Positions 5,925-8,549 of a stretch of DNA of 64,000 nt are shown here, piece by piece. A program made the translations under genes and the position numbers. The stretch lies in sequence record NC_054912.1; one strand, written 5' to 3'. The notes beneath the pieces are model-generated. The model worked only from the letters and a program-made list of their open reading frames with translations. It was not told the origin of the DNA and did no database searches. Numbering within the stretch: the first letter of the stretch is position 1; every line of letters begins with the position of its first letter. The stretch is from Escherichia phage vB_EcoM_F1.

Positions 5925-5959
5925 TACCAAAAAGCCCCAACCTTTCGGCTAGGGCTAAG
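5925..5959 (-). repeat. 35 nt direct repeat copy 1 (terminator cassette)
   Basis: taccaaaaagccccaacctttcggctagggctaag; second copy at 6484-6518 with 3 mismatches. Confidence 0.8.
5928..5956 (-). terminator. rho-independent terminator hairpin with GAAA tetraloop and T-run (minus strand)
   Basis: stem agcccc...ggggct 5933-5956 with A-run 5928-5932 on plus; directly after the stop of ORF 5964-6437. Confidence 0.6.
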
Positions 5960-5963
5960 AATG

Positions 5964-6437
5964 TTATTTGATTTGTTTAGCAGACCAAATGCGGTCTTTA
6001 ATAATTTTTTGGATGTCTTCAACATACTCAAGAGAGTGAGCATGTGGGTTATCTTTGAAACTATAAGCACGAGCTAGTTTTTGGCCTTCAGTTTTGATTA
6101 CTAAAAGCTCTTTAAGGATAGCTTCATATTTGGAGATAATTCCTTTAACAATATTTTTCTCTTGTGCGACTTTAGGATCTGCTTTAGGAGCAGGTTTACC
6201 CGAAGCCTTTGCAAAAGCAGCGCCAGTAGCAACTAAACTTTTCCAGGCCATACTAACTGCATTTCCCGTAAATCCTTCCGCTTTCATGTCGCGTGCGAAC
6301 TGGAATCGTGATTCATCAGAAGCATCTTTGTAAGAATATTTACCCGCTGCAATGGCTGCTTTTGCGACAGCTTGAATTTCGGTGCTAGATGCTTCATTTA
6401 ACACCGCTTCATTTAAAAATTGAGTATATGATTTCAT
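5964..6437 (-). CDS. internal-protein-like protein with capsid-targeting-sequence-like N-terminus
   Basis: 157 aa; N-terminus MKSYTQFLNEAV resembles T4 IP CTS; Ala/Lys-rich; late promoter upstream; flanked by repeated terminators. Confidence 0.6.
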   Translation of the reverse strand: MKSYTQFLNEAVLNEASSTEIQAVAKAAIAAGKYSYKDASDESRFQFARDMKAEGFTGNAVSMAWKSLVATGAAFAKASGKPAPKADPKVAQEKNIVKGIISKYEAILKELLVIKTEGQKLARAYSFKDNPHAHSLEYVEDIQKIIKDRIWSAKQIK

Positions 6438-6477
6438 CTTATTTCCTGTTTTAATTCGTGGATTTAATATACTACTA

Positions 6478-6485
6478 TATTTATA
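6478..6485 (-). promoter_or_regulatory. T4 late-promoter box TATAAATA upstream of the IP-like gene
   Basis: minus-strand TATAAATA directly after the terminator T-run, then AGGAAA RBS and ATG at 6437. Confidence 0.55.
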
Positions 6486-6518
6486 CCAAAAAGCCCCAAC
6501 CTTTCGGTCGGGGCTAAG
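6484..6518 (-). repeat. 35 nt direct repeat copy 2 (terminator cassette)
   Basis: taccaaaaagccccaacctttcggtcggggctaag. Confidence 0.8.
6487..6515 (-). terminator. rho-independent terminator ending the tRNA / stable-RNA transcription unit
   Basis: hairpin 6492-6515 plus T-run on minus strand. Confidence 0.6.
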
Positions 6519-6824
6519 CCTTGCGGCAACCTTGTCGGGGTTCCACCTGCTAAGGCAAGTGTTTGTACGAAACGCCGGGATTCGAACCCGGTTATTAAGC
6601 AGTTGACGCTACTCAATATTTTTAAAAGGCCATATCTCGACCATATCCGAACGTTCCGTCAAAAACGCTACTCGGCTTATGGCAAAGATATTTCCTCGAA
6701 TCGATAATTCGGTGCGCCGTTTCTGCTGTGATGTAAGAGGGCATCAATAAACGCAAAGATTATTAACGCAATTCCTTACTCAGGGAACATCAGTCCGACG
6801 ACTTACCGGTAGCGACCCGGTTTC
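6516..6824 (-). ncRNA. putative small stable RNA gene(s), position of T4 rnaC/rnaD (species 1/2 RNAs)
   Basis: about 310 bp with no ORF of 60 aa or more in any frame in a dense genome; tRNA-like T-arm ccgggTTCGAATcccgg at 6578-6592; between tRNA-Arg and a terminator. Confidence 0.3.
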
Positions 6825-7175
6825 TTAATATTCTTTTAAAGAATCAATATATTCACGGCGTTTACGCCACAAATCAATTGCTTCATACGCGGATTCAGCA
6901 TTTCGAATTGGTCGGCATTTATGTAAAGACTTATGATTTTGATATTTTGTAGATAATGGAATTTTATCTAAAAGGTCTTTACGTTCAAAGTATTCGTAAC
7001 CATCTAAGCCAAATGAACGATTTTTGAGAAATTGCCAATGACCAAATTCGTTTTGAATATAAATATAATCCGCATGTTGATAAAGTAAATTAATTTCACG
7101 AAATGAGATATGTTTTTCATATTCATTGAAGTAAAATGTTAAATCATGAACTACTAAATAAACATTACCTTTCAT
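6825..7175 (-). CDS. hypothetical protein
   Basis: track ORF extends to 7223 into tRNA-Arg; ATG at 7175 with GAGGAAA RBS gives a 116 aa product without overlap. Confidence 0.45.
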   Translation of the reverse strand: MKGNVYLVVHDLTFYFNEYEKHISFREINLLYQHADYIYIQNEFGHWQFLKNRSFGLDGYEYFERKDLLDKIPLSTKYQNHKSLHKCRPIRNAESAYEAIDLWRKRREYIDSLKEY

Positions 7176-7193: not shown

Positions 7194-7270
<77 letters not shown>

Positions 7271-7273
7271 TAA

Positions 7274-7939
7274 TTAAAATTTCATTTTTCGACCTTTAAA
7301 CCATCCTTCTGGAATTGGGTCAGTTTTCTTAATACGTTTAGAAACTTTTTCATCTAATGAATGAATCCACATCATACCAAATTGGGAATTCTTTTCACCT
7401 TTCTGGTGATTATTTTTAGCGTGAATTTCTTTCATTTTATTAATAGTTTCAAGAGTATGATGCTTATTTAAAAATCTGCTATTATTTAAAAATTTTTCCC
7501 TGTATTCAGGAGTTGACCACAAGCGTTTAAATACATTTGAACCATGTTTACGATATTTTTCTTGAAGTAAAATATCATTTTTAAAACGTGACTTAAACGA
7601 TTTAGCTCCTTTTAAACTAGCGTCTTTCTTCTGGTTTAGCATCTCAGGAATATTTATATGATCCCATCCGCCTTCACCGCCAAGTTTTAAATTATACACA
7701 TCTGGTCTATTTAAAAACTCTTCTGTGACAATATTTTTCTCGGCTTCAAGCATAGATTCTTTATCATCAAAATATTCTAATATTTCTTTAGAAAAATTTT
7801 CTATACCATACCTGTCTTGGGCTCTTTTTAATAATTTACCAGAACCCATATATCCATCATCTAAATTTTCGGTAGAATGCACACCAATATAAATTTTATT
7901 ATTAATTTTATTTGTTATTTTATAAGTGTAATGGAACAT
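7274..7939 (-). CDS. segB: GIY-YIG homing endonuclease (SegB-like) within the tRNA cluster
   Basis: 221 aa; N-terminal GIY-YIG module YKITNKINNKIYIGVH..DGYMGSG; same size and position as T4 segB. Confidence 0.85.
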   Translation of the reverse strand: MFHYTYKITNKINNKIYIGVHSTENLDDGYMGSGKLLKRAQDRYGIENFSKEILEYFDDKESMLEAEKNIVTEEFLNRPDVYNLKLGGEGGWDHINIPEMLNQKKDASLKGAKSFKSRFKNDILLQEKYRKHGSNVFKRLWSTPEYREKFLNNSRFLNKHHTLETINKMKEIHAKNNHQKGEKNSQFGMMWIHSLDEKVSKRIKKTDPIPEGWFKGRKMKF

Positions 7940-7980
7940 AAATATCTCCTATTTCTAAGAGTATTTATGTTCCCAAAATA

Positions 7981-8052
7981 TGGCCCTGGGTGGAATTGAA
8001 CCACCATCTGGCGATTATGAGTCGCTTGCTTGAACCTTCCAGCTACAGGGCC
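7981..8052 (-). tRNA. tRNA with anticodon CAU (T4 tRNA-Ile position; Met not excluded)
   Basis: manual fold: acceptor GGCCCUG/CAGGGCC, anticodon loop CU-CAU-AA, T-arm GGUGG-UUCAAUU-CCACC; no encoded CCA. Confidence 0.7.
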
Positions 8053-8053
8053 T

Positions 8054-8129
8054 TGGTGCTGATTGACGGAATCGAACCGCCGACATCCTCATTACAAGTG
8101 AGGTGCTCTACCTACTGAGCTAAATCAGC
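8054..8129 (-). tRNA. tRNA-Thr (anticodon UGU)
   Basis: acceptor GCUGAUU/AAUCAGC, D-arm GCUC-AGUAGGUA-GAGC, anticodon loop CU-UGU-AA, T-loop UUCGAUU, encoded CCA. Confidence 0.85.
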
Positions 8130-8136
8130 GAAATTA

Positions 8137-8223
8137 CGGAGGCGATAGGATTTGAACCTATGAGTCGCCGGAGCGACTGCCGGTTTTCAAGACCGGTGCA
8201 TTAAACCACTCTGCCACGCCTCC
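8137..8223 (-). tRNA. tRNA-Ser (anticodon UGA), long variable arm
   Basis: acceptor GGAGGCG/CGCCUCC, anticodon loop CU-UGA-AA, long variable arm, T-loop UUCAAAU; no encoded CCA; 2 nt after tRNA-Pro. Confidence 0.8.
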
Positions 8224-8225
8224 AG

Positions 8226-8299
8226 TCTCCGCGGCAGGATTTGAACCTACGACATTCTGCTCCCAAAGCAGACGCTCTACCAAACTGAGCTACACGGAG
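8226..8299 (-). tRNA. tRNA-Pro (anticodon UGG)
   Basis: acceptor CUCCGUG/CGCGGAG, D-arm GCUC..GAGC, anticodon loop UU-UGG-GA, T-loop UUCAAAU; no encoded CCA. Confidence 0.8.
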
Positions 8300-8309
8300 T
8301 AAATTAAAT

Positions 8310-8383
<74 letters not shown>

Positions 8384-8388
8384 AAATT

Positions 8389-8475
8389 TGGTGCGAGAAG
8401 TGGGACTCGAACCCACAAGGAAATCATTCCGCAGCATTTTAAGTGCTGTGCCTTTACCAATTTGACCATTCTCGC
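8389..8475 (-). tRNA. tRNA-Leu (anticodon UAA), long variable arm
   Basis: acceptor GCGAGAA/UUCUCGC, anticodon loop CU-UAA-AA, long variable arm, T-loop UUCGAGU, encoded CCA. Confidence 0.8.
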
Positions 8476-8476
8476 G

Positions 8477-8549
8477 CTGGGAATAAAGGACTCGAACCTT
8501 TGCATCCTGGAATCAAAATCCAGTGCCTTACCAACTTGGCTAATTCCCA
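8477..8549 (-). tRNA. tRNA-Gln (anticodon UUG)
   Basis: acceptor UGGGAAU/AUUCCCA, D-arm GCCA..GGC, anticodon loop UU-UUG-AU, T-loop UUCGAGU; discriminator G, no CCA. Confidence 0.75.

Follow-up and report, generated by a model that had tools for sequence, protein, structure and literature searches.

Orthologs of the T4 species 1 and species 2 RNAs in Escherichia phage vB_EcoM_F1, with rnaC as a predicted four-arm tRNA mimic

Domains resembling tRNA are found in tmRNA, in YrlA (a bacterial Y RNA-like RNA), in the tRNA-like structures of plant viruses, and in the C4 RNAs of P1 and P7, which are processed by RNase P. The principle common to these RNAs is an acceptor/T-arm module that recruits tRNA enzymes and is joined to a non-tRNA functional module. 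According to the literature of the 1970s–80s, RNase P also makes the 5′ end of the species 1 RNA of bacteriophage T4. The functions of this RNA (rnaC) and of the species 2 RNA (rnaD) were given as unknown in a 2010 review (PMC3014915) and are still described in this way (PMC9697503, PMC12685909). A 2022 omics study identified RNAC and RNAD as late RNAs in T4 and detected RNAC by Northern blot (PMC9697503). In 2025, a study that adapted a T4-like phage to a semi-permissive host reported one convergent single-nucleotide polymorphism (SNP), located in rnaD, in every line (PMC12685909). Here, we analysed a stretch of 64,000 nt from Escherichia phage vB_EcoM_F1 (NC_054912.1; hereafter the window), in which the segment 6440–6830 carries the counterparts of both genes.

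Identity with the T4 species 1 and 2 RNAs

The misc_RNA features T4s001 and T4s002 of the T4 genome (NC_000866) served as references, with rnaC at 70908–71046 (139 nt) and rnaD at 71053–71171 (119 nt). BLAST aligned T4 rnaC to positions 6704..6566 of the window (97.8% identity over 139 nt) and T4 rnaD to positions 6825..6711 (99.1% over 116 nt). Judged by sequence, the segment can be assigned with high confidence to orthologs of T4 rnaD and rnaC, as the last two genes of a phage tRNA operon on the minus strand. The following features make up this end of the operon:

6711–6828, minus strand: rnaD (species 2 RNA) ortholog, 118 nt; 99.1% identical to T4 over 116 nt and 100% identical to AR1 and RB18
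6705–6710, minus strand: 6-nt spacer GAAUUA from rnaD to rnaC, placed by alignment to the T4 annotation; the same spacer is present in T4
6566–6704, minus strand: rnaC (species 1 RNA) ortholog, 139 nt, a predicted four-arm tRNA mimic; 97.8% identical to T4 and matched by the covariance model described below
6516–6565, minus strand: 3′ trailer of 50 nt from rnaC to the terminator, kept in T4 and Dhakavirus
6484–6515, minus strand: intrinsic terminator of the tRNA/stable-RNA operon, with the stem at 6492–6515 and a U tract; common to T4

Position p of rnaC corresponds to window coordinate 6705-p, and position q of rnaD to 6829-q. The likeness to T4 thus covers near-identical sequence, strand, the order of the two genes at the end of the tRNA operon, the downstream trailer, and the terminator. 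The vB_EcoM_F1 locus differs from that of T4 in the tRNA-Arg allele, in an open reading frame (ORF) of 116 aa before rnaD, and in a 157-aa ORF after the terminator. Due to the insertion of the 116-aa ORF, rnaD no longer abuts a tRNA.

An earlier note, made from the sequence alone, had described positions 6438–6824 as free of ORFs of 60 aa or more and had proposed that they occupy the place of the T4 species 1 and 2 RNAs. Both statements agree with our results. The longest overlapping ORF is 50 aa (6464–6616, minus strand, TTG start), while the order, strand and identity values of rnaC and rnaD are those given above. The alignment to the T4 rnaC/rnaD region, which the note had suggested, matched both RNAs and also the trailer and the terminator. 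The T-arm CCGGG-TTCGAAT-CCCGG, which the note had pointed out, belongs to rnaC and occurs exactly once in the window. Its true place is 6575–6591 on the minus strand; it had been assigned to 6578–6592, with no strand named. The observation that this T-arm lacks a full cloverleaf was correct, since rnaC appears to be a tRNA mimic and not a tRNA; neither ARAGORN nor Rfam gives a tRNA at the segment. The segment had further been located between tRNA-Arg and a strong terminator. The terminator at 6492–6515 is real, but the 116-aa ORF intervenes after tRNA-Arg.

No Rfam family was matched by the segment, either at the gathering score or at E values of up to 10. Weak matches to sau-63, rli49, tRNA-Sec, isrK, and anti-hemB were at chance level and were rejected. 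In GenBank, rnaC and rnaD are annotated as such in a few records only (T4 and the RB series). Annotations of this region are often wrong and include ‘hypothetical protein’ coding sequences (CDSs), tRNA-Met (PG7), tRNA-OTHER (G9062), tRNA-Phe (KKP_3262), and ‘terminator’ (SA79RD).

The source phage is a Tequatrovirus. Segment 6440–6830 is 100% identical to that of Escherichia phage vB_EcoM_FN and has matches in 741 phage records. The rnaC and rnaD of vB_EcoM_F1 are already known elements that were rediscovered here. They add no new element, because these genes were described in the 1970s and are annotated in the T4 reference genome. The overall account, which combines orthology to T4 rnaC and rnaD, the predicted co-transcription and processing of both RNAs, and the interpretation of rnaC as a four-arm tRNA mimic, is in our judgement very probably correct.

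Fold, covariation and distribution of rnaC

Homologs of rnaC were gathered by BLAST and pattern scans, and 17 of them were used to build a covariance model, R1. The rnaC of vB_EcoM_F1 is the sole match to R1 in the window and scores 155.8 bits, as compared to 156.1 bits for T4 itself. Altogether, 24 full-length homologs were recovered, one per genome. All of them are 138–142 nt long and score 107–160 bits, while the next-best matches are ordinary tRNAs with at most 24 bits. The homologs represent at least nine named genera: Tequatrovirus, Kagamiyamavirus (EcS1), Karamvirus (PG7 and others), Moonvirus, Gelderlandvirus (a Proteus phage), Mosugukvirus (Pectobacterium phage PM2), Kanagawavirus (PEi20 and Kosakonia phage 305), Marfavirus (Klebsiella phages), and Mosigvirus, the latter being placed by a BLAST match of 96.4%. 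The unclassified phages Ursula and Erwinia COW86c also carry rnaC.

Outside the T-even phages, rnaC is mostly located within tRNA arrays and separated from its neighbours by tRNA-like spacers, as in the order tRNA-Trp, rnaC, tRNA-Gly. Identity of at least 95% to rnaC was found in 679 of 744 phage records, and the respective numbers for rnaD were 168 of 733. In three Dhakavirus loci, rnaC is gone from its usual place with no obvious replacement, and the trailer directly follows rnaD. A structure-aware rnaC pattern run over metagenomes retrieved T4-like contigs only. In 185,579 species genomes of bacteria and archaea, this pattern yielded two GC-rich chance matches, both of which fail the covariance model and were discarded.

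The minimum free energy (MFE) of the single rnaC sequence is -50.6 kcal/mol (z = -4.1). The consensus fold and the pair counts were derived from an alignment that MAFFT had made without reference to structure. Over the 44 pairs of this fold, 96.5% of the alignment cells are paired, and 25 of the pairs change on both sides. None of 500 shuffles reached any of the five measures used, and slid controls pair in 38–50% of cells. This covariation shows, at the level of sequence comparison, that rnaC folds as a predicted four-arm tRNA mimic with the following parts:

6697–6703 with 6568–6574, minus strand (positions 2–8 with 131–137): acceptor stem of 7 bp, with compensatory changes
6627–6696, minus strand (positions 9–78): arm II, a long irregular hairpin with many compensatory pairs in helices 2–6
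6593–6618, minus strand (positions 87–112): arm III, a 10-bp stem with the 6-nt loop CGUCAA; eight of the ten pairs changed on both sides
6575–6591, minus strand (positions 114–130): T-arm CCGGG-UUCGAAU-CCCGG with a 5-bp stem, unique in the window

Acceptor pair 4–135 is A-U in T-even phages and G-C in most other genera; PM2 has G-U at this place. The stem contains a conserved tandem U.U (5.134 and 6.133), which is replaced by two U-A pairs in Pectobacterium phage PM2. The middle pair of the T-stem changes from G-C to U-A in other genera; the chance expectation of the T-arm motif in the window is zero, even with two mismatches allowed. On the 3′ side of the acceptor stem, every homolog examined has U-(A/C)-C-A, namely UACA in vB_EcoM_F1 and most genera and UCCA in Marfavirus and PM2. 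This motif resembles the discriminator base and CCA end of tRNA.

Arm II occurs in two sequence types of one shape. Even where its sequence is wholly different, the length of rnaC stays at 138–142 nt. At the base of this arm, A9 G10 G11 are paired with C76 C77 U78, while A12 and G74 G75 are invariant and unpaired; its apical loop UUGACG occupies positions 43–48 (6657–6662). Arm II may correspond to a D-arm whose loop carries a hairpin insertion of ~60 nt, since A12 and G74 G75 resemble A14 and G18 G19 of the tRNA D-loop. It is followed by an A/U-rich linker (positions 79–86) and by arm III, which in our model corresponds to an anticodon arm of 10 bp, with its loop at positions 97–102 (6603–6608). 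One unpaired A follows arm III.

The two hexamer loops are exactly complementary to each other, UUGACG of arm II (6657–6662) to CGUCAA of arm III (6603–6608). Both are invariant across genera, with the exception of Marfavirus, in which UUGGCG and CGCCAA represent a compensatory change from A-U to G-C. The PM2 version of this helix has 4 bp. Over the alignment, the loop-loop helix is 99% paired, against 17–51% in slid controls. A kissing contact between arms II and III, within one molecule or between two, is therefore plausible; it is not proven, because the compensatory change is a single evolutionary event. Such a kiss would bury the anticodon-equivalent loop of rnaC.

Architecture of rnaD and surroundings of the two genes

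The predicted fold of rnaD consists of a 5′ hairpin followed by a long imperfect hairpin, which is closed by CGUCG/CGGCG. Two parts of it are distinguished by their variation:

6805–6821, minus strand (positions 8–24): hairpin P1, ACCGG-GUCGCUA-CCGGU; the closing A-U pair is G-C in the RB3 type
6732–6780, minus strand (positions ~49–97): hypervariable hairpin tip with at least three unrelated sequence classes

Positions 4–48 and 98–117 are almost invariant among 14 distinct alleles. The first three nucleotides differ from those of T4, due to the insertion of the upstream ORF. The tip classes are those of T4/RB3, Elenatom, and JS98, and a hairpin is retained in each. These classes cross genera, with two Dhakavirus phages differing in the tip, and tips also differ among phages whose rnaC is 97–100% identical. 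Homologs of the rnaD core were identified in Marfavirus and in Karamvirus, where the tRNA-Asn and tRNA-Asp genes flank the homolog; they contain AAGUCGUCG ... YCCCUG ... CACAG ... CGGCGC. The counterparts of P1 in these two genera are hairpins of unrelated sequence and size, which end at the same point just before AAGUCGUCG. The possibility that rnaD resembles tRNA and ends in CCA was considered as well. It was rejected: the CACC(A) tail of T-even phages is not kept in Karamvirus and Marfavirus, and the 3′ end of rnaD is therefore not tRNA-like.

All features of the rnaD/rnaC/trailer/terminator region are located on the minus strand, in the order tRNA-Arg, 116-aa ORF, rnaD, rnaC, trailer, terminator, 157-aa ORF, and e.8. 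ARAGORN detected eight tRNA genes in the window, on the minus strand at 7194–8549. The genes on the 5′ side of rnaD are as follows:

6825–7175, minus strand: 116-aa ORF (phrog_3355) with no Pfam domain, between tRNA-Arg and rnaD
7194–7270, minus strand: tRNA-Arg(UCU), which barely aligns to T4 tRNA-Arg and represents a different allele
7274–7939: segB, a homing endonuclease gene, adjoining tRNA-Arg

In T4, the gap between tRNA-Arg and rnaD is 1 nt. The 116-aa ORF is inserted at this point in vB_EcoM_F1, and its TAA stop codon overlaps the first bases of rnaD. The same insertion is present in AR1, RB18, Elenatom, LYE-01, ZCEC14, and Sfk20, and phrog_3355 also adjoins the tRNA array of one Karamvirus (locus L004, 2329–2703). 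The 3′ end of tRNA-Arg (..CUGUCUCGACCA) resembles the RB3 and JS98 alleles.

Downstream of rnaC, the trailer contains the hairpin CACUUGC-CUUA-GCAGGUG and folds with z = -3.5 when the terminator is taken in. In a terminator scan, the structure at 6492–6515 had a GAAA loop on a 10-bp stem, in which seven pairs are G-C, and a U tract after the stem. The 157-aa ORF (5964–6437, minus strand, phrog_2280), which is not present in T4, is flanked by the near-identical terminator stem-loops 6492–6515 and 5933–5956 and preceded by the late-promoter-like TATAAATA (6478–6485). The region 5933–6515 looks like a gene cassette inserted via recombination between repeated regulatory stem-loops.

The steps of biogenesis are deduced from the T4 literature and the anatomy of the locus. 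rnaD and rnaC would be co-transcribed with tRNA-Arg and the 116-aa ORF from promoters upstream of the tRNA cluster, and the transcript would end at the terminator 6492–6515. Additional transcription probably starts from a late-promoter-like TATAAATA inside segB (7651–7658, minus strand), which fits the late accumulation of both RNAs in T4 (PMC9697503). rnaC would then be released like a tRNA, by RNase P and the enzymes that trim tRNA 3′ ends. The recognition element would be its minihelix, in which the acceptor stem of 7 bp stacks on a canonical T-arm.

Other candidate RNAs were encountered in phage tRNA arrays. A conserved non-coding block (...AAGAUUAUAUCUGUGCACGGGUAUAUGAGAGCC...) is common to the arrays of Karamvirus (L004, ~530–667) and Marfavirus (L011 and L049), where it follows the rnaD-like RNA on the downstream side. 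This block may represent a further stable RNA that has escaped annotation; a search for it in the window was negative. In several T4-like genera, tRNA-Gln and tRNA-His are separated by a gap in which a conserved long-range stem, AAUAUUNNUUC ... GAGUGAAUAUUGAU, encloses 60–170 nt; it is a candidate structured RNA. It was located in five arrays:

L004, 1031–1244: AAUAUUNNUUC/GAGUGAAUAUUGAU stem
L006, 1032–1245: AAUAUUNNUUC/GAGUGAAUAUUGAU stem
L007, 963–1178: AAUAUUNNUUC/GAGUGAAUAUUGAU stem
L003, 629–731: AAUAUUNNUUC/GAGUGAAUAUUGAU stem
L008, 988–1087: AAUAUUNNUUC/GAGUGAAUAUUGAU stem

Also, the scan for the T-arm pattern produced an off-target in unrelated viral contigs from IMG/VR (L024 and L027). 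In these contigs, ACTCCGCTGCACGTTATTTGCAGGGTTAACCGGGTTCGATCCCCGGCGGAGTA forms a tRNA-like minihelix of ~50 nt, which has an acceptor stem, one hairpin, and a T-arm but no D-arm. This element may be a piece of an attachment site or else a mini tRNA-like RNA.

Possible roles and comparison with known tRNA-like RNAs

The architecture described above suggests, as a tentative reading, that rnaC is a non-decoding tRNA mimic engaging a factor that reads the top half or elbow of tRNA, and that rnaD binds protein, with diversifying selection on its tip. The targets of rnaC might include processing or modification enzymes or tRNA-directed host factors, for which it could serve as a decoy or scaffold in the late phase of infection. 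A more specific form of this reading appears rather unlikely. In it, rnaC would be a closed non-decoding mimic with its anticodon-equivalent loop capped by the kiss. T4-like phages would produce it late in infection in order to engage or distract a host factor that recognises the shape of tRNA, such as a defence nuclease directed at tRNA or a processing/modification enzyme. rnaD would be the partner-specific counterpart, and its wholesale-exchanged tip would record an arms race with host variants. If true, two RNAs that have been orphans for 50 years would gain a function, and a new class of counter-defence RNAs, by which phages imitate tRNA, would be defined.

Several points weigh against the interpretation of the two RNAs developed here. 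The predicted MFE of rnaD (-32.6 kcal/mol) is weakly better than that of shuffles (z = -1.6), and its interior pairing varies between models. The kiss is based on one compensatory event in one lineage and on the invariance of the loops. Arm II, with ~27 bp, far exceeds the 10 bp of arm III, so that an intramolecular kiss would need a sharp bend; a dimer, or a separate ligand for each loop, is an alternative. The D-loop-like reading of arm II cannot be tested by covariation, since A12 and G74 G75 are invariant. The annotated T4 rnaC begins with U1, one base outside the acceptor stem, and ends at A139 without CCA, which makes the details of processing uncertain. The decoy or scaffold role is read from shape alone, and the literature searched, which did not extend to the primary papers of the 1970s–80s or the 2003 T4 genome review, contained no experiment that assigns a function. 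Finally, T4 mutants with deletions of the tRNA region grow on laboratory hosts; any role would then be conditional.

Instead of acting through tRNA shape, rnaC and rnaD could be trans-acting regulatory RNAs, with the rnaD tip or the rnaC loops pairing with host or phage mRNAs. Both have been named ‘small regulatory RNAs’, with no evidence given, in PMC9697503. The hypervariable tip could be a changing seed sequence, and the two invariant hexamers of rnaC could be read in the same way. However, these hexamers complement each other, and the mature RNAs, whose ends are annotated upstream of the terminator, do not carry the U tail typical of Hfq-dependent small RNAs. On both strands of the window, complementary stretches did not exceed 12 nt, the longest being A/U-rich and at chance level, which leaves room for short seeds. 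A comparison with 5,426 complete E. coli genomes gave no similarity at the blastn level, which likewise leaves room for short seed matches. We consider base-pairing regulation unlikely.

It is very unlikely that rnaC is an unusual working tRNA or an aminoacylated tmRNA-like RNA active in translation. The canonical T-loop, the 7-bp acceptor stem, and the 3′ U-(A/C)-C-A would suit such a role, and homologs bear the GenBank names tRNA-Met (PG7), tRNA-OTHER (G9062), and tRNA-Phe (KKP_3262). A weak tRNA-Sec-like Rfam alignment on rnaC reaches 16.6 bits. Nevertheless, rnaC was called neither by ARAGORN nor, at the gathering score, by the Rfam tRNA and tmRNA models. It contains no tag ORF, and the 10-bp stem of its arm III bears a loop of 6 nt, which is probably paired. 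An alternative cloverleaf, in which ACGGAACG (positions 46–53) forms the acceptor with 131–138, was rejected, as it was matched by 485 of 500 shuffles and is broken in most genera. This cloverleaf underlies both the tRNA-Sec-like match and the ‘tRNA-Met’ annotation of PG7.

Another very unlikely possibility is that both RNAs represent tRNA genes in decay or mere by-products of processing in the tRNA operon, stable through their tRNA-like ends and devoid of function. Their place in tRNA arrays, the retention of a tRNA-type acceptor stem and T-arm, the lack of rnaC at its usual place in three Dhakavirus loci with no obvious replacement, and some 50 years in which no function was found (PMC3014915, PMC9697503) agree with such a fate. 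On the other hand, the arms that are dispensable for processing are under constraint, arms II and III contributing 21 of the 25 compensatory pairs. Functionless decay is hard to reconcile with this covariation, with a length fixed at 138–142 nt over at least nine genera despite the replacement of arm II sequence, and with two loops that are both invariant. The rnaD core, too, is invariant from the T-even phages to Karamvirus and Marfavirus, and rnaD acquired a convergent SNP during host adaptation (PMC12685909).

A role of the segment in encoding small proteins, as annotated in many GenBank records, can practically be dismissed: ORFs of 34–53 aa occur on both strands and are annotated as CDSs in several phage records, but all are ≤53 aa with TTG or GTG and never ATG starts, no short ORF of the region is conserved across genera (none of ≥25 aa in EcS1, PG7, and PEi20), indels are 1–3 nt, and substitutions obey base pairing rather than codon logic.

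For the long-standing question of function, the comparative model offers concrete mutants and assays. It comprises the predicted four-arm mimic, the complementary loops, the occurrence in at least nine genera, and the division of rnaD into core and tip. The residual value of this locus lies in this question, in the lack of both RNAs from Rfam, and in the many mis-annotated records.

In comparison with canonical tRNA (RF00005) and class II tRNAs, rnaC shares the stacking of an acceptor stem (7 bp) on a T-stem (5 bp), the T-loop UUCGAAU, a junction of four arms, and the place inside tRNA arrays, and its 3′ U-N-C-A may correspond to a discriminator base and CCA. Unlike canonical tRNA, it has no 7-nt anticodon loop, carries a hairpin of ~60 nt in the D-arm equivalent and a tandem U.U in the acceptor stem, and is missed by tRNA finders. 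Its variable region is 1 nt, and its anticodon-arm equivalent consists of 10 bp and a 6-nt loop. Unlike tmRNA, YrlA, the plant-virus tRNA-like structures, and C4, rnaC has no Rfam match (E = 10) and possesses neither a tag reading frame nor a Ro-binding stem. Compared with these tRNA-like RNAs, the architecture of rnaC, with its possible contact between the loops of arms II and III, is its own.

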